Shown here: positions 1,775 through 63,280 of the stretch, piece after piece
Numbering within the stretch: position 1 is the stretch's first letter
How the letters are laid out: each line of letters starts with the position of its first letter
From: an uncultured Gammaproteobacteria bacterium
GTDB lineage: Bacteria; Patescibacteriota; Microgenomatia; UBA10105; UBA927
Direction of reading: 5' to 3'
Assembly: GCA_964621305.1 (NCBI GenBank)
Contig: CAZUOM010000001.1
Location: forward strand, 165,448 to 229,447
Length of the DNA stretch: 64,000 nt
The notes under the pieces: model-generated
Seen by the model: only the letters and a program-made list of their open reading frames with translations
Database searches by the model: none
What the model was told of the DNA's origin: nothing
Made by a program: the position numbers and the translations under genes

Positions 1775-1834
1775 GATAACGAGAGAATATCACAAAATAC
1801 GCTAATTGTCAACTACTATAAGATATAGTAGCTA

Positions 1835-2068
1835 CTAGAAGACGGCTTTGCGCAGGTCGAAGCGGACGCGCTTGATACACGAGGTGCAGGCACGCACGCG
1901 CTTGAGGACCCCGTCAAACGGCAGGCTCACCCAGTGAAGGTTGGGCTTAAATCTGCGGATGGTCGTCTGTGCCCGCTTTTTCCACTGCCCGCCGGCAACT
2001 CCAGTGTGATGGGTGTGAGAGCGACCCATGTGACTTTTTTTATTGCATATTTCGCATCTTGCAGCCAT
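1835..2068 (-). CDS. rpmB: 50S ribosomal protein L28
   Basis: 77 aa, MAARCEICNKKSHMGRSHTHH...RRFKPNLHWVSLP. Matches the L28 signature (C-x-I-C-x-K, SH, RrF-PNL). Confidence 0.8.
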   Translation of the reverse strand: MAARCEICNKKSHMGRSHTHHTGVAGGQWKKRAQTTIRRFKPNLHWVSLPFDGVLKRVRACTSCIKRVRFDLRKAVF

Positions 2069-2079
2069 AATAAAAAGAA

Positions 2080-2155
2080 GCTTAGCGTGCTTAGCAAGAC
2101 CAGTAGCTTAGAAGTTTCTAAGCCACCAATCTACTAAGCATCTAAGCTACTAAGC
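2080..2155. repeat. hexamer inverted-repeat cluster: 3x GCTTAG followed by 4x CTAAGC (empty IVS-like stem site)
   Basis: GCTTAG at 2080, 2089 and 2106. CTAAGC at 2118, 2134, 2142 and 2150. The central GCTTAGAAGtTTCTAAGC is a near-perfect palindrome. The same hexamer arrays flank the four-helix-bundle gene at 10381-10823. Confidence 0.6.
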
Positions 2156-2194
2156 TTCTAAACTTCTCCTCAATCACGTATACTATACCACAGC

Positions 2195-39018: not shown

Positions 39019-39032
39019 ATACTGATTCTATC

Positions 39033-39764
39033 ATGCACTGCCCCAACGGCGACAACCTACTCATCGACAAAGCCCCAAAACACGACGGGTTAACTCTCCA
39101 TTACCTACTATGTCTCAGTTGTGGCGGCATCTGGGTGTCAAGTTTTGACGCAAACTACCTCAAATATGTCGATATTCCAGCTTCGCAAGGAGAGTCCTTG
39201 CGGACGCAAGGACTCTCCTTAATACTTTTATGTCCGCAATGCCGGAAGGGTCTTTTGAGAGCTACCGGCGACAATGTCCCGCCGGATGTTGTTGCCTATC
39301 GCTGCCCTGACGGTCACGGCTACTTTTTCCCGGCAGGAGAGCTCCTGAAGTTTAAGGAAGCGCAGGAGGTAAAAATTGAATATCACCAAAAATGGCATAT
39401 ACCGCTTGCCTCCGTTGCCAGCGCTCTCCTCATGACGATGACGGGCCTGATCATCTCCGCAGGCCTCATCATCGGCGTCATCGAGGGGGAGCGACAACAG
39501 ACGATCACCTCGCAAGCAGAAGAGATCATCAAATCTCAGAAAGCCTACGTGGACCAAACCAACCGCGCCGTCACCATCATCGCTCTGACGGCCGAACCGA
39601 TAGCCCTCACCGTCGTCGTTGACGGGAAAGAACATCCCATGCTAGCTCCCGATGCCCGCTCCCACGTCGTCCGCATTACAAACATCGCCCCCGGCGACCA
39701 CTCCTACTTCTTCCGCTTCCATAAAGAAAGGGAAAGGATAGAATCTCCAATATTCTCATTCTGA
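39033..39764 (+). CDS. zinc-ribbon-containing membrane protein (243 aa)
   Basis: CPNG...CLSCGG, CPQCRKG and CPDGHG Cys pairs, with a central TM helix LASVASALLMTMTGLIISAGLIIGVI. Confidence 0.5.
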   Translation: MHCPNGDNLLIDKAPKHDGLTLHYLLCLSCGGIWVSSFDANYLKYVDIPASQGESLRTQGLSLILLCPQCRKGLLRATGDNVPPDVVAYRCPDGHGYFFPAGELLKFKEAQEVKIEYHQKWHIPLASVASALLMTMTGLIISAGLIIGVIEGERQQTITSQAEEIIKSQKAYVDQTNRAVTIIALTAEPIALTVVVDGKEHPMLAPDARSHVVRITNIAPGDHSYFFRFHKERERIESPIFSF

Positions 39765-41484: not shown

Positions 41485-41547
41485 CGGGATTCTCCTTTCT
41501 TAAGCCTGACGTCATTTTGATTTTAAAGAACCATATGTCCTATAATA

Positions 41548-41576
41548 TTGACATCAGTGTTATTTTATGGTATACT
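41548..41576 (+). promoter_or_regulatory. sigma70-like promoter for the 41585 gene
   Basis: TTGACA (41548-41553), 17-nt spacer, TATACT (41571-41576). Confidence 0.45.
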
Positions 41577-41584
41577 AACAGGTT

Positions 41585-42442
41585 ATGAGCGCAGCAGCAA
41601 GGGCTGAAATAGCAGTCCACGGCATACATTTTTCTCCGAACGGAAAAGAACCTAAGATGTTTACGCCTGCCTCGCATCGCGGCCTGGTTCACGGCATCGA
41701 CGCAGACTTCAAACTACCGTTTGTCATGGCAAAGCCGTCTTGGATGAATGAGCACATTGAGACAATGCGTAATAAATTTGATATATACACCCAGCCTGCC
41801 TCGGAAAGAGATTTTCGTGAAGCCATGAGAGCAGTAACAATTAGGAAAGACGGCAAAGTAGCCTTTCGTAATCCCTCCCTGCCATATCCGAAGCCGACCA
41901 GGCCCCACGCAAAGCTTAATCGCCACCGCCATCCATCTCCTGCACCCGAGGATGAACGACGTGATGACGAACCGAGGTGGGAACGGCTCCCAGATCATGT
42001 TGATGAAGCGAATCGCGCAGACTTATTCGATCCTACCCTCGACCGATTCCACAGAAAAAACTCTATCAGAATCCAAAATCCGGCCTATCTATTGCATATG
42101 CCATCACGTCCTGCCGTCGAGCCTAGAGGCAACGGCCGTGACATGCCCGATTCTTTAATTCAAAGACTTTCCAGTGCAATCAGTGCAGTTGATAGAGCTG
42201 CCTCAAACGGAAACACTCTAATAGAACGGCAGCGGGCAACGATTGATTATTTTATGCGCAATGGCGCGATAAAAGCAGAATTCACGAGCAGGGCTCGAGC
42301 CCCCAATAAAATACATACCATACTGAAAATTTCTGTTCGTTCTTATAAGGACAAAGGCCAATTTATCGGCCTCGGTGGTAGCATAGCACGCCAAATCAGA
42401 CGAATCGTCGGTGTGAACTCCGTTATGGTCAGTGTCGATTAA
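41585..42442 (+). CDS. hypothetical protein (285 aa)
   Basis: Basic, His-rich ORF behind a good promoter. No family recognised. Confidence 0.5.
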   Translation: MSAAARAEIAVHGIHFSPNGKEPKMFTPASHRGLVHGIDADFKLPFVMAKPSWMNEHIETMRNKFDIYTQPASERDFREAMRAVTIRKDGKVAFRNPSLPYPKPTRPHAKLNRHRHPSPAPEDERRDDEPRWERLPDHVDEANRADLFDPTLDRFHRKNSIRIQNPAYLLHMPSRPAVEPRGNGRDMPDSLIQRLSSAISAVDRAASNGNTLIERQRATIDYFMRNGAIKAEFTSRARAPNKIHTILKISVRSYKDKGQFIGLGGSIARQIRRIVGVNSVMVSVD

Positions 42443-42554: not shown

Positions 42555-43187
42555 GTGTTTGATAAAATTGCCCATCCGGAAGAAGTCAGGGGAAGCAATG
42601 TCGGGATAATGGGAATTACCGCTGACCCGCCACACCGAGGTCATCGGGAATTAATCGCCGGAGTCCTTGCATGCAATCGTTTTACCACGGTCGTGTTGTA
42701 TCCGACCGGGGAACAACGAGATGATAAAACAATTTCCGCTGGTCCCAACGACCGGGCAGCCATGCTCATGCAAACGCTCAACCCGGAGTTATTCGGGTAT
42801 CCGACAAAACTTATAGTCGTTTTTGCCGATATGTACGGCAAAAACACATACACGATCAAACTCCTGCAAGCGTATCAGAAACGATTTCCGGACAAACACT
42901 TTTCATGAATCACAGGGAGTGATTCTGACATCGGCACCTGGCACTGCGGCAAAGAACTGCTTGAAAAATGGCATTTTTGCATCGTACCGCGGCCGGGATT
43001 TGACAGGCTCCCGCCAGCCCTGCCGGTTCACTACGAAATTCTCGACGTGCCGCACGGGCTCCACGTTTCAAGTACGCAAATCAAGCAGCTCATAAAAAAC
43101 GGCGAACCGTTTGAAAGATTCGTTACGCCGGCAGTCGCCCGGTTTATAAAGGAAAATAGACTTTACAAATACCAAGAAAGACGGTAA
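42555..43187 (+). CDS. nadD: nicotinate-nucleotide adenylyltransferase interrupted by a single in-frame TGA at 42906-42908 (pseudogene or recoding)
   Basis: N-terminal part GIMGITADPPHRGHRELI is the (H/T)xGH nucleotidyltransferase motif. Downstream in the same frame: ITGSDSDIGTWHCGKELLEKWHFCIVPRPGF ... VSSTQIKQLIKNGEPFERFVTPAVARFIKENRLY, the NadD C-terminus. The TGA falls in the conserved FFIIGAD-like segment (FS*ITGSD). Ends at TAA 43185-43187, inside the RBS of nadE. Confidence 0.6.
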
Positions 43188-43193
43188 GGAGGA

Positions 43194-45164
43194 ATGCCGA
43201 TGTCACGGATAAAAATCGGCCTGGCCCACACAGACAGTTGGGTCGGCGCCTTTGACGACAACTTTGCCAAAATCTGCCGATCTGCAGAACGCGTGGCTTT
43301 TGCGCAAAGCACCTTTGGCGTCTTTGGTGAACAGGTTATCTCGGGCTACCCAAGCGAAGATCTCACGCATTGGCCAAGTTTCGTTGCGGGACAGATGGAA
43401 AAACTCGTGAAGTTTGCCCGATTTACCAAAACGCTTGAGTTTAAGACCATCTTTGTCGTCGGTCTCACGGTTGCTCACGGAGGCCACAACTACAATTGTG
43501 CGGCCCTCGTCTACGACGGCAACATCATCGGCATCGTTCCGAAGCAAAAGCTACCCAACTACGATGTCTTCTACGAAATGCGCTGGTTTACACCGGGCTT
43601 GCCATATCAGTTCGAAACAGTCACGCTTGCCCCCGGCATCAGCGCACCGTTTGGGGATATAATCTTTGCAACCCCGTTTTGCACATTTGCCCTTGAAGTG
43701 TGTGAAGACATCTGGTCAAACGAAGGGCCAATGGCGCGGCGCGCATATTCGGGAGCGGAGCTCGTGATGAATATATCAGCGTCTCCCTTTCGGATCGGCG
43801 TCGTCGATACAAGACGGGAAATGATTGCGACACGAGCCTCAGACAACCAAGCAACCATCGTCTACTGCAATAAAGTCGGCGGTCAGGGTAGCCTAGTGTT
43901 TGATGGTGGCGGATTTATCAACCAAAACGGGAAGATGGTATACGAATCGCCTCGCTGGCAGGAAACGGCGTCATCCTGCGTTGTTGACTTGGACATCACG
44001 CGGGCGCGTCGAACAAAAAATACCACATGGCGAACGGACGCAGCAGAATTTGCGAGAAAGAATAGTCCGGTTCAAACCGTGATGGTTGATATGGGTGATT
44101 TTGTTTTACCGCAATATCGCGTTTTTGAACCGTTGAGACAATCCAAGAGCGTCTTCATGCCTGCATTTCAAAAGCCAAAAAATCCGCGCGCCGATTACTT
44201 TAACGATCTCATCGAAGCCATGATCTGGGCCCTCGGCGGGTACTTTGAAAAAACAAAGGCATTTCAACGGATTGGCGTTGCTCTTTCCGGCGGTCGTGAT
44301 TCAGCGCTTTCCTTCATCATTGCATATCTTTATGCCAAGAGGAAAGGCGCTCATGTCTCTGATTTCCTCCATGCATTCTCGATGCCCTCTAGGTTTAACA
44401 GCAAAACAACCAAGAGCATTGCGCGAATGCTTTGCCAAGAACTCGGCGTTTCGTTTATGGAACTTCCTATCGAGGAAGCGGCTCGTCGGGAAACCCGCGC
44501 AACCAAGATGATGCTTGGAGGCAAAGATCCTACTGCAATCACCAAACAAAATATCCAGGCACGAATCCGTGCCGCTCGCATGTGGAACTGGGCAAATACA
44601 GCACATGCGATGATGCTCCAAACGGGCAACATGAGTGAGAAAGCGGTTGGATATACGACAACGATCGGAGACCTCTCTGGAGCATACTCGCTTTTGGGCA
44701 ATCTACCCAAAACCGTCATCAACGAGCTCCTGCGGTACCTGTACGAAGTGTACAAATGGAAAGCGCTCGGCGAACTTTTGAAAACCAAGGCATCTGCTGA
44801 ACTTGCCAACGGGCAAAGCGATGAGGCAGATCTCATGCCGTTTCCGGTCCTGGATGCTTGCTTTTTCCACTTCGTCGGAGACAAGATGGATGTAGCAACG
44901 CTCTATCTCACGCTTCGAGCAAAATGGAGCGATAGTCAGCTGCGAAAGATGGATCCAACGTATACCAAAGGGAAGTTGAAAGAATGGGTCGAAAAATTCA
45001 TCACCCTTTTCTTTCGATCCATCTACAAGTGGGTCCAGGCGCCAGAGACAGCACATCTGGCATCAGTGGATTTGGACCGCGAGCGCGCACTGCAGCTTCA
45101 AGCCGCAAGCTCTACCCAGTGGCTTGGAAACGCAAGAGAGGTCCTCGCCTCCCTTCCGGACTGA
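43194..45164 (+). CDS. nadE: glutamine-dependent NAD+ synthetase (N-terminal CN-hydrolase domain plus C-terminal NAD synthase domain)
   Basis: 656 aa; nitrilase-like N-terminal half; PP-loop SGGRDSALS in the C-terminal half; GGAGG RBS 8 nt upstream. Confidence 0.85.
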   Translation: MPMSRIKIGLAHTDSWVGAFDDNFAKICRSAERVAFAQSTFGVFGEQVISGYPSEDLTHWPSFVAGQMEKLVKFARFTKTLEFKTIFVVGLTVAHGGHNYNCAALVYDGNIIGIVPKQKLPNYDVFYEMRWFTPGLPYQFETVTLAPGISAPFGDIIFATPFCTFALEVCEDIWSNEGPMARRAYSGAELVMNISASPFRIGVVDTRREMIATRASDNQATIVYCNKVGGQGSLVFDGGGFINQNGKMVYESPRWQETASSCVVDLDITRARRTKNTTWRTDAAEFARKNSPVQTVMVDMGDFVLPQYRVFEPLRQSKSVFMPAFQKPKNPRADYFNDLIEAMIWALGGYFEKTKAFQRIGVALSGGRDSALSFIIAYLYAKRKGAHVSDFLHAFSMPSRFNSKTTKSIARMLCQELGVSFMELPIEEAARRETRATKMMLGGKDPTAITKQNIQARIRAARMWNWANTAHAMMLQTGNMSEKAVGYTTTIGDLSGAYSLLGNLPKTVINELLRYLYEVYKWKALGELLKTKASAELANGQSDEADLMPFPVLDACFFHFVGDKMDVATLYLTLRAKWSDSQLRKMDPTYTKGKLKEWVEKFITLFFRSIYKWVQAPETAHLASVDLDRERALQLQAASSTQWLGNAREVLASLPD

Positions 45165-45195: not shown

Positions 45196-45513
45196 ATGAA
45201 CAAGAAACATTGGTGGGAAGAGATCATCGAGGCCGTAAAAGAAAGCATCGCCTTTCGTGCCAAGCTAAACCCTCGGAGGGTATTAGATAAAGTGGCGATT
45301 AAGGTGGTCAGCCTCCAAATCTGTCGACTCTTGAAAGTTCTTGAGTGTGTGGATGACATTCCATTTGCTCGTCGGGCAAAGGTATACGATCAGCTTGATC
45401 AACTGATCCAGCTGGACGAGAAGGCAGGTAGCGACTCGACAGTTCAGATCGTCCTTGCCGGTCTGAAAATTCAGTACATGCAATATCAAGTGAAAGAGAA
45501 GAAGGAAGAGTAG
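45196..45513 (+). CDS. hypothetical small protein (105 aa)
   Basis: Internal ATG with GGAGG 8 nt upstream. The track start at 45124 overlaps the nadE 3-prime end and is less likely. Confidence 0.4.
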   Translation: MNKKHWWEEIIEAVKESIAFRAKLNPRRVLDKVAIKVVSLQICRLLKVLECVDDIPFARRAKVYDQLDQLIQLDEKAGSDSTVQIVLAGLKIQYMQYQVKEKKEE

Positions 45514-45525
45514 AAACCCTCAACA

Positions 45526-45584
45526 AACCCATGACCAGGCTGATGCAATTATGCATCAACGCAGAACGGTCATGGGTTTTTTTT
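45526..45584 (+). terminator. rho-independent terminator
   Basis: AACCCATGACC-(31 nt)-GGTCATGGGTT followed by TTTTTTTT. Confidence 0.6.
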
Positions 45585-45606
45585 GGCAAGAAGGCAACCC
45601 TATAGT

Positions 45607-45635
45607 TTGACTGTGCATGCCAGGCATGGTAAAAT
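45607..45635 (+). promoter_or_regulatory. near-consensus sigma70 promoter of pncB
   Basis: TTGACT (45607-45612), 17-nt spacer, TAAAAT (45630-45635). Confidence 0.55.
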
Positions 45636-45677
45636 ACATAGGTTCTCTCTGGCTCATTGACATACAAATGAGAATTC

Positions 45678-45751
45678 CCTCCTGTTGGTATTGCCATGAT
45701 GTACTCAAAATGTAGAGTACAGCAAGCAATACCAACAAAATTTTGAAGGAG
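45678..45751 (+). promoter_or_regulatory. 5-prime leader hairpin that sequesters the pncB Shine-Dalgarno sequence; candidate riboswitch or translational control element
   Basis: CCTCC (45678-45682) pairs with the SD GGAGG (45747-45751). The 12-bp stem TGTTGGTATTGC / GCAATACCAACA encloses a nested hairpin GTACTC-aaaatgta-GAGTAC. An 11-nt A/U-rich internal loop lies on the 3-prime side. Confidence 0.4.
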
Positions 45752-45756
45752 GCAGC

Positions 45757-46971
45757 ATGATTGTTGGCCATCAAATCATTCAAGGCAAGTGGGACTCGGA
45801 TACGTACGCGTGGACCATGGCAAATGCGCAACAGTTAAACGACCAGAGCCACGGCCGCAACCTTTGGCTCCACTACAAACTCATCCATCGAAACAAATGG
45901 GGGTTTCCCCCAAATATGGTCGATGTGTTTCGGGAACAGGTCCAAAACATGACCACGCTCGCTACCCCAGCCCATCAAACGGCTCATTTCAAAGCGCGTG
46001 CCACATGGGTGAGACCGTCGTTTATTGACTGGTTTGCCAATGAATTTCGCTTTAATCCCAATCAGGTCACGATCGGAAGCGACAGCGGTCGACTGTCTGC
46101 GGATATCATCGGACCGGTTCCGGATGTGATGTTTTGGCAGTTTCCGATCATGCAGACAACCAATGAACTCGACAACATCCTTTCCGGTCGCAAACCCAAA
46201 CCTGGCTGGGAAAGACGCACCAGCAATAAAGGAATACTCTGGAAGAAGCACGGCGTGCCGGTTGCAGAATTTGGCTCGCGGCGCAGATTTTCCTATGCCG
46301 TCCAAAAACGAGCCCTTGAGATTCTTATCGAAACGATGGGGTTGAAGGAAAACGGGGGCCTTCTTTTGGGAACAAGCAACGGGGCTCTGGCGGGAGACGT
46401 CTTTGCGCAACCTATGGGCACCAAAGGACATGATCGCAAACAGATCTACGCAGCACTCGTTGGGTATCTCCTGGCAAACAAGGTCGAGCGCGCGGAGTGG
46501 TTGGAGGCGTACCCTGAATTTCCCGGATACGATCTTCCCGATACCTTCACTACAAAGGTTTATCTGCGCGATTGGGACGACCGGACGATCCTCGCCTTCA
46601 CAGGAATGCGTCAGGATTCGGGCGACCCGTACTGGTTTACCGATGCATTCGTAAATTTCTACAGGTACTGGCGGGTGCCGTTTAACAACAAAGGTATGAT
46701 CTACAGCAACAAGCTGGACTCGCTAACCGCGGTACAACTTGTTGAATACAACCGAAAAAACAATTTGTTCACCGCATCCTGCGGCATCGGCACCAACATC
46801 ACCAACGACGTCGGCTGGCCGGCTCCGGATTACGTCGTCAAATTGTGGGCGGTCAGTCTGGATGCTGGCAAAACATGGATTAGTGTATGCAAACTCTCTG
46901 ATGATGACGGCAAAGTGACTGGCGCCCCGGATGCAGTCGCCCGCGCGAAGCGGGAACTGGGGATTGGGTAA
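45757..46971 (+). CDS. pncB: nicotinate phosphoribosyltransferase
   Basis: 404 aa; LLLGTSNGALAG and PMGTKGHD motifs of the NAPRTase family; sits in a NAD salvage context with nadD and nadE. Confidence 0.75.
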   Translation: MIVGHQIIQGKWDSDTYAWTMANAQQLNDQSHGRNLWLHYKLIHRNKWGFPPNMVDVFREQVQNMTTLATPAHQTAHFKARATWVRPSFIDWFANEFRFNPNQVTIGSDSGRLSADIIGPVPDVMFWQFPIMQTTNELDNILSGRKPKPGWERRTSNKGILWKKHGVPVAEFGSRRRFSYAVQKRALEILIETMGLKENGGLLLGTSNGALAGDVFAQPMGTKGHDRKQIYAALVGYLLANKVERAEWLEAYPEFPGYDLPDTFTTKVYLRDWDDRTILAFTGMRQDSGDPYWFTDAFVNFYRYWRVPFNNKGMIYSNKLDSLTAVQLVEYNRKNNLFTASCGIGTNITNDVGWPAPDYVVKLWAVSLDAGKTWISVCKLSDDDGKVTGAPDAVARAKRELGIG

Positions 46972-47000
46972 GATCGAAAATCGTTGATAATTCACCACAG

Positions 47001-47049
47001 CACCTGCGATAGCGGGAACTTTTCCGACTAATTGCAGGTGCTTTTTTTT
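47001..47049 (+). terminator. rho-independent terminator after pncB
   Basis: CACCTGC-(26 nt)-GCAGGTG followed by CTTTTTTTT. Confidence 0.55.
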
Positions 47050-47088
47050 GTGGGAAAAACATTGTTGACCTGCTGATTATCTGCTACC

Positions 47089-51413: not shown

Positions 51414-52469
51414 TTATGTCGTTATCTTCTCTAAAGCATTATGTTCCGTCGCATCGTGGATTTCCATGGCGATGCGTCTTCCCATGCTTACTGATTCTCC
51501 ATATAAATACCCGCTGTACGGGGTTGCGGCAATTCCCGGCGAGCCGGGCATACGCGGCGAGACATCAACCACGACGATCTCCTTTTTTCGCTTCCCGGAT
51601 ACGATGATCGCCTGCAGGGCAAACGGCCCGATGATTCCTGGCGGGACGAGCGTTTGGGTGGCTTTTATAAACCGCTCGGCCATGGCAAACGCCTCCTCCA
51701 GCATCGATTCTACCACGGTGACGGCGATATGCCCAGTTTCTTCAAACGAAACAGTAACGTTTTTCTGATACGCAGCCGGCAAGCGCACTAGGCCGTCGAT
51801 ATTCGTCTGACGGCGCGTGTCCGTCCCCAAAAGTTCCAGCCGTTTACGAATCGGAGAATAAAAAAAATGGAAGTTCACCGCTACGCCAACCGCGTATTCT
51901 TCGATAACCGCCCGTTCCAGCGCCGGCGCTGTTATTTTTCCTGATCGTAGCATTGCCCGCGACGTTTGCAGGAAGCTTTTTTCATCACGGCAAAGGAAAA
52001 ATGCCCGTTCCCACGGACGGTCTTTCTCGCTTACCTTGACTATCACAAGCCGGTCGATGTTCTTTGGTGAGAGAAAATGTTGCGGAAACCGAATATTGGC
52101 TTCTTTGAGAAGGTCATACTGATTTGGACGTTTTGCGCGCTCTTCGTACTTCAAGAGGTATTTATTGCCGAACAAAGGCACCGTAAAGCGCGTCTCGATA
52201 GCCTTGTAATCAAAGTTGCAATATGCCTCAAACGACCGGTGCGGCACAAACGCACAGCACTTTTTTTGTAACGTTTTCTGCACCGCGGGCGTAAGTATGT
52301 CAGAAAACTGCTCAAGCACAAGGCACTCGTCCACACAACATTTGTAATACTCACGATAGGTTTTTTCCCTGCCTTTTTGCGCAACGACGAGCGTGCCAAG
52401 CCCTTCATCTTTGGCCCCGCGGCAGATGTCCAGAGCAGAATGACTCCCAAGGGTAGCAATGGTAACCAT
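51414..52469 (-). CDS. purP: archaeal-type FAICAR synthetase (PurP-like, ATP-grasp), copy 1
   Basis: N-terminus MVTIATLGSHSALDICRGAKDEG, characteristic of PurP; 351 aa. Confidence 0.6.
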   Translation of the reverse strand: MVTIATLGSHSALDICRGAKDEGLGTLVVAQKGREKTYREYYKCCVDECLVLEQFSDILTPAVQKTLQKKCCAFVPHRSFEAYCNFDYKAIETRFTVPLFGNKYLLKYEERAKRPNQYDLLKEANIRFPQHFLSPKNIDRLVIVKVSEKDRPWERAFFLCRDEKSFLQTSRAMLRSGKITAPALERAVIEEYAVGVAVNFHFFYSPIRKRLELLGTDTRRQTNIDGLVRLPAAYQKNVTVSFEETGHIAVTVVESMLEEAFAMAERFIKATQTLVPPGIIGPFALQAIIVSGKRKKEIVVVDVSPRMPGSPGIAATPYSGYLYGESVSMGRRIAMEIHDATEHNALEKITT

Positions 52470-52475
52470 ATATAG

Positions 52476-53480
52476 CTAGCTTACTAAGCAATCAACGATC
52501 CCTTTGCGATGGGCGATTTTAATATCCCGCGCAATCCTCCTTCCCGTGCTCATTGGTTCATCATATAGGAGTGAAGCGTACGGGGAACTATCGATGAAGA
52601 GATTCGTGCCGGCGACGATGCGGCAGGATACTTCTATCACATAAAACTGCTGGTCGGGAGTGACGATCGTCTCCAGACAAAACGGCCCGAAGAGGCCCCG
52701 CTCGTCAATAAGCTTTTGCGATGTGACTACCAACCGTTCGGCCATTGCGTACGCCTCCGGCAGGAGCGACTCACGCAGAGACAAGGGGCTATTGCCGACC
52801 ACGACAAATGACGGCGTGATATCAATGCGCTCTTGGTGCGCAAGCGGCATGCGCCCCAGAGAATCAACGTTTGTTTCGTATCTCCGGTCGATACTTAACA
52901 GTTCCATGGTCTTCGTTATCGGTGAGTAATAATAGTGAAGGTAGATGGGAACGCCAACGATGTACTCCTGCACAATGAAGTCCTTCTTGGTAAATAACGA
53001 AATCTTTTTCTCAAAATCCTTTTGACTATGCGCGACGAAATACCCTCTTCCGCCGTCGGCGCCATAGGACTTGACGATCACCGGCCGGTCAATCCGGTCG
53101 CGGCGGGAAAACTTGCGCGGCAGCCTAATCCCTGCAGACGCAAGCCAGTTAAGCTGCTTTTTGCGGTCTGCTTCCCAGTCCAGCACTGCTTTGTTGCCAA
53201 AGTACGGTAGACTTATTGCTTTGTTGCCCTCGATACCGAGGTAGGCAATGAACGATCCGTGAGGAATAACAATAACATGGCGTCTGGAAATACTATGCTG
53301 TACCTCGGGGAAGTCTCCGTATGAAGATATGGTGATAATGTCATCGATGAAGCGAAACCGCCGGTAAAACGCCTCGCGGTCGGATTGCGTGATGAGCAGT
53401 GTCGAAAAACCCTCGTCTTTTGCCCCTTTCATTATCTGAAGGGCGGTATGGCTCCCCAGCGTTGCAATCGTATACATCAT
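52476..53480 (-). CDS. purP: archaeal-type FAICAR synthetase (PurP-like), paralogous copy 2
   Basis: MYTIATLGSHTALQIMKGAKDEG; 334 aa; paralog of the adjacent gene. Confidence 0.6.
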   Translation of the reverse strand: MMYTIATLGSHTALQIMKGAKDEGFSTLLITQSDREAFYRRFRFIDDIITISSYGDFPEVQHSISRRHVIVIPHGSFIAYLGIEGNKAISLPYFGNKAVLDWEADRKKQLNWLASAGIRLPRKFSRRDRIDRPVIVKSYGADGGRGYFVAHSQKDFEKKISLFTKKDFIVQEYIVGVPIYLHYYYSPITKTMELLSIDRRYETNVDSLGRMPLAHQERIDITPSFVVVGNSPLSLRESLLPEAYAMAERLVVTSQKLIDERGLFGPFCLETIVTPDQQFYVIEVSCRIVAGTNLFIDSSPYASLLYDEPMSTGRRIARDIKIAHRKGIVDCLVS

Positions 53481-63038: not shown

Positions 63039-63280
63039 GATAGCCTCAGTATACCATCACACCCAAAATCTGAAAAGACAACAATGGTCATTTGGTAAAA
63101 AGTGGGAAAAGTTAATAACTGAAGGAAATAAGAGGATTATTAATGAAGAAAAAACATACTCGGGAGGTCCATCATCATAAATCAGAAACAGGAACCACGC
63201 ATATTTGTGGCCGTTTCTTTTCTACAACAATGGACCCCCCGTCGCGCTAGATACAAAACCGATCCCAATTCCATGCGCGA

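Follow-up and report, generated by a model that had tools for sequence, protein, structure and literature searches.

The nicotinate phosphoribosyltransferase gene pncB, in a 64-kb stretch of DNA (64,000 nucleotides, here called the window), is preceded by a structured leader that may act in cis as an RNA hairpin, sequestering the Shine-Dalgarno (SD) sequence and throttling or gating pncB translation. We favour this reading of the folding models tentatively, at a little under an even chance. The original prediction had described a NAD salvage gene preceded by a structured leader with an occluded ribosome-binding site (RBS), and the fold predicted here does pair the SD with an upstream CCUCC. 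The promoter, the leader, the CCTCC, the 12-bp helix and the nested hairpin were all found in the sequence where they had been placed.

SD sequestration is an ordinary, textbook kind of element, and it is unusual here solely because most of the neighbouring genes are leaderless. Gating of pncB translation by this hairpin, if real, would be the first description of control of pncB at the RNA level; a full-text literature search for pncB together with riboswitch returned no RNA element described for this gene. It would also add a case of post-transcriptional control in a lineage that is little known and largely leaderless.

The pncB gene and its transcription unit

The genes and terminators around the leader are as follows.

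42555-43187, + strand: nadD, upstream of pncB, aligning full-length to NadD models
43194-45164: nadE, upstream of pncB
45196-45513, + strand: orf105, a 105-aa open reading frame with a GGAGGA SD, between nadE and the pncB promoter
45522-45585, + strand: intrinsic terminator upstream of pncB, a 15-bp stem followed by 8 T (inverted repeat and generic terminator-like Rfam match)
45757-46971, + strand: pncB, nicotinate phosphoribosyltransferase, 404 aa (NCBIfam and Pfam, alignment of 17 homologues)
46999-47050, + strand: intrinsic terminator after pncB, 12-bp arms followed by 8 T (inverted repeat)

The pncB product matches its NCBIfam model with an E value of 4e-68, under the trusted cut-off, and contains the Pfam domains NAPRTase and NAPRTase_N. 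The columns that are invariant in the family are kept in the alignment of 17 homologues. Judged by these domains and columns, the open reading frame at 45757-46971 is a genuine though divergent nicotinate phosphoribosyltransferase gene. It is an orphan: the next protein found in a search among 5.8 billion clusters is 36% identical, and a scan of GTDB genomes for pncB homologues yielded 28-34% identity only.

PncB, an enzyme of vitamin B3 salvage, provides the point of entry into a nadD-nadE-pncB set. The nadD gene carries an in-frame TGA (42906-42908) at the position before the ITGSD motif, and the full-length NadD alignment crosses it. Since TGA is the ordinary stop in 12 of the 33 window genes, the TGA within nadD is likely a nonsense mutation or the mark of a pseudogene, an assembly error or a site of local read-through. 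Were it a genuine stop, the pncB-nadD-nadE route would be broken. The nearest homologues of NadE come from metagenome-assembled genomes (MAGs) of mixed lineages, and the relatives at 54-57% identity include 'Parcubacteria group' MAGs.

The nadD-nadE-orf105 unit ends at the terminator at 45522-45585. Because it is flanked by terminators and has a promoter of its own, pncB appears to be a self-contained, monocistronic unit composed of terminator, strong promoter, leader, gene and terminator. The product of orf105 was considered as a possible regulator and set aside: it matched only itself among 1.84 billion representative proteins, had no Pfam, NCBIfam or PDB match, and gave an all-helical AlphaFold model of low confidence (pLDDT 53).

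Promoter and predicted transcription start

One promoter was assigned to pncB.

45607-45635, + strand: sigma-70-type promoter P1, with -35 box TTGACT (45607-45612), 17-nt spacer, extended TG (45627-28) and -10 box TAAAAT (45630-45635)

P1 has 10 of 12 consensus matches plus the extended TG (TTGACT-17-TGgTAAAAT), and it fits the promoter grammar of the genome itself, TTGACA-17-(TGg)TATACT. Transcription of pncB is predicted to start at about 45641, approximately 7 nt past TAAAAT, giving a leader of about 115 nt that we infer to be transcribed from P1. A leader of such length would be exceptional in this genome because at least eight neighbouring genes in the window are leaderless, with a -10 box only 6-10 nt before the ATG. 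Examples are 1775-1835 (-), 41540-41587 (+), 63039-63090 (-) and 39019-39060, all with no SD. A minority of window genes, namely nadE, orf105, pncB and purC, have strong AAGGAGG sites.

Predicted fold of the leader

The following elements of the leader were identified in the sequence and in the predicted fold.

45653-45672, + strand: small 5' hairpin CUCAUU-N8-AAUGAG, in the minimum free energy (MFE) and centroid folds
45678-45682, + strand: anti-SD CCUCC, directly adjoining the 5' foot of the long hairpin
45683-45737, + strand: near-perfect clamp hairpin of 55 nt, made up of helices of 12, 2 and 7 bp that are separated by a 2x1 loop and a 1x1 mismatch and capped by an 8-nt apical loop
45738-45747, + strand: A/U-rich 10-nt 3' bulge AAAUUUUGAA, unpaired, just 5' of the SD
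45748-45752, + strand: SD GGAGG, followed by a 4-nt spacer and the ATG at 45757-59
45753-57 with 45762-66, + strand: start-codon helix CAGCA/UGUUG, a small second helix over the AUG

The MFE of the leader is -45.9 kcal/mol (z = -4.78), and 0 of 200 dinucleotide shuffles fold as well. Among 12,780 segments of 100 nt covering both strands of the 64 kb, the leader ranks third in structure (GC-normalised z -5.2), and the other top structured spots are mostly intrinsic terminators. The hairpin has 12-bp perfect arms (TGTTGGTATTGC / GCAATACCAACA, at 45683-94 and 45726-37) and an inner stem TGTACTC / GAGTACA (45700-06 and 45715-21) around the 8-nt loop. Altogether the shape is that of a rod-like, near-continuous helix, running through 5 bp, the 10-nt bulge, 12 bp, 2x1, 2 bp, 1x1, 7 bp and the 8-nt loop. 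The predicted fold contains no junction and no large conserved or pocket-like loop.

The claimed pairing of CCTCC with the SD is supported with per-pair probabilities of 0.88-0.91, the coordinates of the GGAGG being corrected from 45747-45751 to 45748-45752. What had been described as an A/U-rich internal loop is indeed A/U-rich, and takes the form of the 10-nt 3' bulge AAAUUUUGAA. Its pairing probability is below 0.1 at 45744-46, and it could possibly be a ribosome standby or S1 landing site. CCTCC occurs with a frequency of 1.1e-3 per position per strand; the chance of one abutting the hairpin is about 0.1%, and of one within 10 nt about 1%. The hairpin alone has a free energy of -27.3 kcal/mol, to which the closing SD helix adds about -6 (-33.5 vs -27.3).

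Three further readings of these elements were examined and rejected. A K-turn at the internal loop does not fit, the opposite strand being GCAA and not GA. A loop-bulge pseudoknot (AAAAU with AUUUU) would have to span a helix of about 21 bp on a 10-nt tether. Leader-peptide control was discarded because the upstream open reading frames (15 and 16 codons, starting at 45668 and 45696) have no SD and their starts are buried in helices; about one such frame is expected by chance.

Occlusion of the SD

Opening the SD alone is predicted to cost 5.5 kcal/mol, opening the stretch from SD to AUG 10.3 kcal/mol, and opening the 30S footprint 14.3 kcal/mol. Because the SD-to-AUG value of 10.3 kcal/mol is reached by 7.7% of random window positions, the occlusion energy alone is unexceptional; it is the long perfect hairpin and its placement that are exceptional. 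Masking the CCUCC costs the ensemble just 1.8 kcal/mol, a low value because the SD then pairs with partners in the coding region. The SD:anti-SD duplex with 16S rRNA is worth -9.5 kcal/mol. By these model energies, the helix that closes over the SD would be enough for a substantial block, not an absolute one.

With no ligand present, the ground state is already the sequestered fold (p ~0.9), and the model keeps the SD paired with probabilities of 0.91-0.98 at 42 C and 0.75-0.94 at 60 C. The leader fold analysis found no competing anti-anti-SD ('ON') fold, and the sole alternative helix pairs CCAACAA with UUGUUGG (45732-38 with 45761-67; 7 bp vs 12).

A role for the leader in transcription attenuation or termination, or as an RNA thermometer, is extremely improbable. 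A stable leader hairpin followed by AAAAUUUU could be taken for an attenuator, but the run holds 4 U only and begins 3 nt past the stem; the scan found no terminator on the + strand, where the stem is followed by AAAUUUUG, and canonical 8-T terminators flank pncB on both sides. SD pairing is the logic of RNA thermometers as well, but a thermometer of the ROSE or fourU type was rejected, as the SD is still at least 75% paired at 60 C and does not melt in the physiological range.

The SD-sequestering hairpin would work as follows. Transcription would start about 7 nt after the TAAAAT box, and the 55-nt hairpin would fold once it is made. The clamp would then bring the CCUCC at its 5' foot beside the GGAGG, which lies 10 nt past its 3' foot, and the 5-bp SD helix together with the small helix over the AUG would hide the RBS. 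The 10-nt A/U-rich bulge would stay single-stranded and, since it can serve as a standby site, translation would be damped and not abolished. From the predicted fold we infer that the structure forms in vivo and affects translation.

The combination of a strong promoter, a strong SD and sequestration suggests that something relieves the block. Candidates would be a protein, RNase III cutting the duplex of about 22 bp, or a helicase. In the 5' UTR of E. coli adhE, an SD masked by a hairpin is reported to be unmasked by RNase III. The pncB leader resembles generic SD-sequestering hairpins of this kind in that an upstream CCUCC pairs with GGAGG within the 5' leader. Anti-SD and SD are part of one transcript and pair with each other in the dominant predicted fold. 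At about two helical turns, the duplex of the leader might be cut by RNase III, and a single-stranded A/U tract lies by the SD. The pncB leader is unrelated in sequence to any described example, and its effect on translation is predicted only.

The start site is itself a prediction, and a weak promoter-like site (45691-45718, + strand; TTGCCA-16-TAGAGT, 9 of 12 matches, within chance expectation) lies inside the hairpin, so a transcript without the 5' arm could arise. If made, such a transcript would lack the anti-SD as well, and its SD would be free.

Comparison with NAD+ riboswitches

The original prediction had connected the leader with NAD sensing, and this connection is not supported: the leader has no Rfam match and no ACANCCCC bulge, its ligand-free ground state is already sequestered, and there is no competing fold. 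The Rfam models for nadA (NAD+-I) and pnuC (NAD+-II), to which it was to be compared, gave no match even at E<=10 with lax filters. At the gathering score, Rfam 15 returned three tRNAs only from the whole window; at E<=10 with lax filters, the region 45450-45900 returned generic hairpin matches only (miRNA precursors and one terminator-like match).

NAD+-I riboswitches were found only upstream of nadA in Acidobacteria (PMC6859854). They consist of tandem bulged stem-loops, and domain 1 is defined by the ACANCCCC bulge (PMC7297122). The pncB leader shares with them an NAD pathway gene, a stem-loop architecture and the involvement of the RBS (PMC6859854, PMC7297122). It differs in the absence of a covariance-model match, of tandem bulged domains and of the ACANCCCC bulge, a sequence with three occurrences in the window and none in the leader, and the gene downstream is pncB and not nadA.

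NAD+-II is a highly conserved P1/P1a/pseudoknot motif located before pnuC (PMC7749635, PMC10085692). In common with it, the pncB leader lies in the 5' UTR of an NAD salvage gene and engages the RBS in a potentially regulatory pairing, the GGAGG being paired with p ~0.9, although in a plain helix and not in a pseudoknot. It differs in having no covariance-model match, in preceding pncB and not pnuC, and in a host that is not Streptococcus. NAD+-II possesses P1/P1a together with an A-strand triple helix and a long-range pseudoknot; the pncB leader is a simple rod hairpin. On the grounds of these models and motifs, the pncB leader is neither an NAD+-I nor an NAD+-II riboswitch, and this clean negative is the main value of the analysis.

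A riboswitch of a new class, in which NAD+, NMN, nicotinate, PRPP or a related ligand would control access to the SD, is very unlikely. The context is right, pncB encoding the entry enzyme of its salvage set, and the RBS is occluded in the predicted fold. A strong promoter and SD combined with sequestration resemble a regulated design, and in two distant MAG loci, L086 and L093, pncA is preceded by a structured leader in which 7 pairs show compensatory changes (see below). Against it, no Rfam family matches at E<=10 and the ACANCCCC bulge is missing; the rod-like helix is interrupted by 2x1 and 1x1 internal loops only, with no junction or pocket. The ligand-free ground state is sequestered and persists to 60 C, and an OFF switch would need stabilisation by its ligand. 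There is also no alternative fold, the leader is a singleton with no covariation, and the window gave no match to the leader model from L086/L093.

In wider terms, an undescribed regulated switch that couples translation of the sole NAD-entry enzyme to NAD status, in an uncultivated bacterium with otherwise largely leaderless genes, would be quite an unlikely identity for the leader, whether it were a riboswitch for a small molecule or a hairpin on which a protein or RNase III acts. Such a switch may be functionally analogous to the covarying pncA/pncB leaders of the 'Parcubacteria group'.

Operators at the DNA level

In addition to the palindromes of the leader, the promoter itself contains one.

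45616-45628, inside the P1 spacer: perfect 13-bp palindrome CATGCC-A-GGCATG (palindrome scan)

This palindrome had been missed in the original prediction and occurs once in the window. It is a candidate repressor operator, of modest significance given the number of places examined, and this role is suggested solely by its position between the -35 and -10 boxes.

It is unlikely, though worth weighing, that the leader is a DNA-level element whose palindromes are repressor operators forming a roadblock at +42 to +96, the folding of the RNA being incidental; it would perhaps act jointly with the CATGCC-A-GGCATG in the promoter spacer. All 26 of the 26 pairs are Watson-Crick, with no G-U, so that the opposite strand folds equally well (-48.0 vs -45.9 kcal/mol for the minus and plus strands) and the sequence gives no evidence on the strand. 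The inner TGTACTC-N8-GAGTACA has the geometry of a dimeric helix-turn-helix site, a perfect palindrome lies between -35 and -10, and a palindromic array elsewhere in the window (2080-2170) likewise scores as 'structured'. On the other side, a concentric palindrome of 55 bp with asymmetric mismatches exceeds the length of a single operator and is shaped like a hairpin. The nested repeats of 12, 2 and 7 bp share one centre (~45710), which in sequence terms would be a hairpin signature, unlike separate protein operators. An operator also leaves unexplained the CCTCC/GGAGG extension, offset by the 10-nt bulge, and the motifs are found nowhere else in the window.

Known regulators of NAD metabolism were compared by their motifs, NrtR being the obvious candidate. 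The NrtR operator is a 21-bp odd-centred palindrome with a GT-N7-AC core, and NrtR sites can be situated between promoter and start codon (PMC2330246). An nrtR gene adjoins the nearest pncB homologues (loci L002 and L084) as well as the pncB of the NadE-related loci L086 and L093, and GTGTA-N5-TACAC boxes with the GT-N7-AC core are present in L002 and L086. The pncB leader is like NrtR operators in having palindromic DNA between the pncB promoter and the start codon, and its nearest homologues adjoin nrtR. Unlike them, it has no 21-bp odd-centred palindrome. The GT-N7-AC core does not occur in 45560-45790, where the best palindrome is even-centred, and the GTGTA-N5-TACAC box shows no enrichment across the window and does not occur near pncB or nadE. 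A tblastn search with the L002 NrtR found no NrtR homologue, and hence no nrtR, in the 64-kb window. The NadR box, an 18-bp palindrome TGTTTA-N6-TAAACA (PMC2330246), is absent from 45590-45760 by direct reading. Operators of the NrtR, NadR and NiaR types were set aside on the basis of their motifs.

Conservation and origin of the palindrome

A covariance model of the leader (built from the single sequence) had no match in 88 other pncB loci. In 79 of the 88, the sequence preceding pncB shows on average no structure (z -0.27 +/- 1.47), and the few strong folds there are upstream terminators. Therefore, these loci show no general 'pncB leader' RNA. Conservation of the SD pairing in homologous pncB leaders, which the original prediction had put forward as a check, was not seen in these 88 loci, although the check is a weak one because no pncB homologue is closer than 36% identity.

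When metagenomes were scanned for the stem pair, only three unrelated palindromes or foldback artefacts came up, and BLAST against plasmids and phages gave no match. The locus is also present in a second assembly (L001, Logan, SRR6943130), which is 100% identical to the window and may share reads with it; thus, it offers no variation for testing selection. Within the window there is no second copy of the 12-mer or of the inner palindrome. An excess of 12-mer matches with 2 mismatches falls within coding DNA and resembles an effect of compositional bias. The SD-sequestering hairpin therefore stands without comparative support, the leader being a singleton in the databases searched, and nothing in its all-Watson-Crick, strand-symmetric pairs shows selection on RNA rather than DNA, or any selection.

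A functionless palindrome, the product of a recent inverted duplication or template switch in a tolerant leader in which the SD was mirrored by chance, is a fairly unlikely but serious alternative. The perfect Watson-Crick arms with no G-U fit a recent origin. The left half is the reverse complement of the right half except for a 10-nt deletion and few substitutions, and the singleton is not conserved. The identical second assembly (SRR6943130), perhaps from the same reads, shows no variation either. A neutral origin is opposed by the energy of the structure, as an unregulated structure of -33 kcal/mol over the strong SD of the sole NAD-entry gene ought to carry a cost. The placement is also exact, with the anti-SD abutting the foot and the A/U bulge preceding the SD, and comparably long perfect hairpins in the window are mostly functional terminators.

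Structured leaders of NAD salvage genes in related MAGs

The search of other loci pointed to structured leaders before pncA and pncB in two 'Parcubacteria group' MAG loci, L086 and L093, which have the gene order nrtR-pncA-pncB-nadE.

L086, 1650-1790 and 2430-2580: structured leaders before pncA and pncB
L093, 1693-1833 and 2445-2595: structured leaders before pncA and pncB

Both leaders of L086 begin with a TAGAGAAAGGAG box, of which L093 has a diverged version. A TTCACA(CA)CAAC box before the SD is common to all four leaders, and duplicated arm segments in all four allow alternative hairpins. Between the two pncA leaders, 7 of 29 predicted pairs show compensatory changes. No Rfam family matches the L086 and L093 leaders, and they are possibly an undescribed cis-regulatory RNA of NAD salvage genes.

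These leaders resemble that of the window in placing long hairpins before NAD salvage genes, and their lineages have the nearest NadE (54-57% identity). They differ in that their loci carry nrtR and that their pncB belongs to another subfamily (26-29% identity). The L086 and L093 leaders and the window leader do not match each other by sequence or by model in either direction; membership of the window leader in the L086/L093 pncA-leader type was rejected, as the model does not match the window. The two loci raise the prior for RNA-level control of NAD salvage in such lineages and are not homologous to the window element. The pointer to structured NAD salvage leaders in related MAGs is the secondary value of this work.

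Other features of the window

The most 'structured' 100-nt segment of the 64 kb is a dense cluster of CTAAGC/GCTTAG repeats at 2080-2170, just upstream of the promoter of the leaderless gene 2195-2800. A similar CTAAGCCACTAAGC precedes gene 10824. The repeat cluster is probably a DNA-level binding array.

A giant open reading frame (12153-38399, - strand) encodes 8748 aa. Pfam identifies an intein splicing domain with a nested NYN domain at about residues 4358-4679 and, close to the C-terminus, an SLT lytic transglycosylase domain; no other part of the protein matches Pfam. The open reading frame 39033-39764, which encodes a protein with a Zn-ribbon domain, contains a perfect hairpin of 16 bp with a loop of 2 nt (AAGGAGAGTCCTTGCG/CGCAAGGACTCTCCTT, 39187-39220).

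A purine-biosynthesis cluster extends from about 47.5 to 60.4 kb, with Pfam domains matching PurE, PurC, PurM, PurB, PurL, PurD and PurF. Within it, two tandem PurP-like genes (51414-53480, - strand) encode DUF1246/DUF1297 proteins, which we take to be the archaeal-type FAICAR synthetase family.
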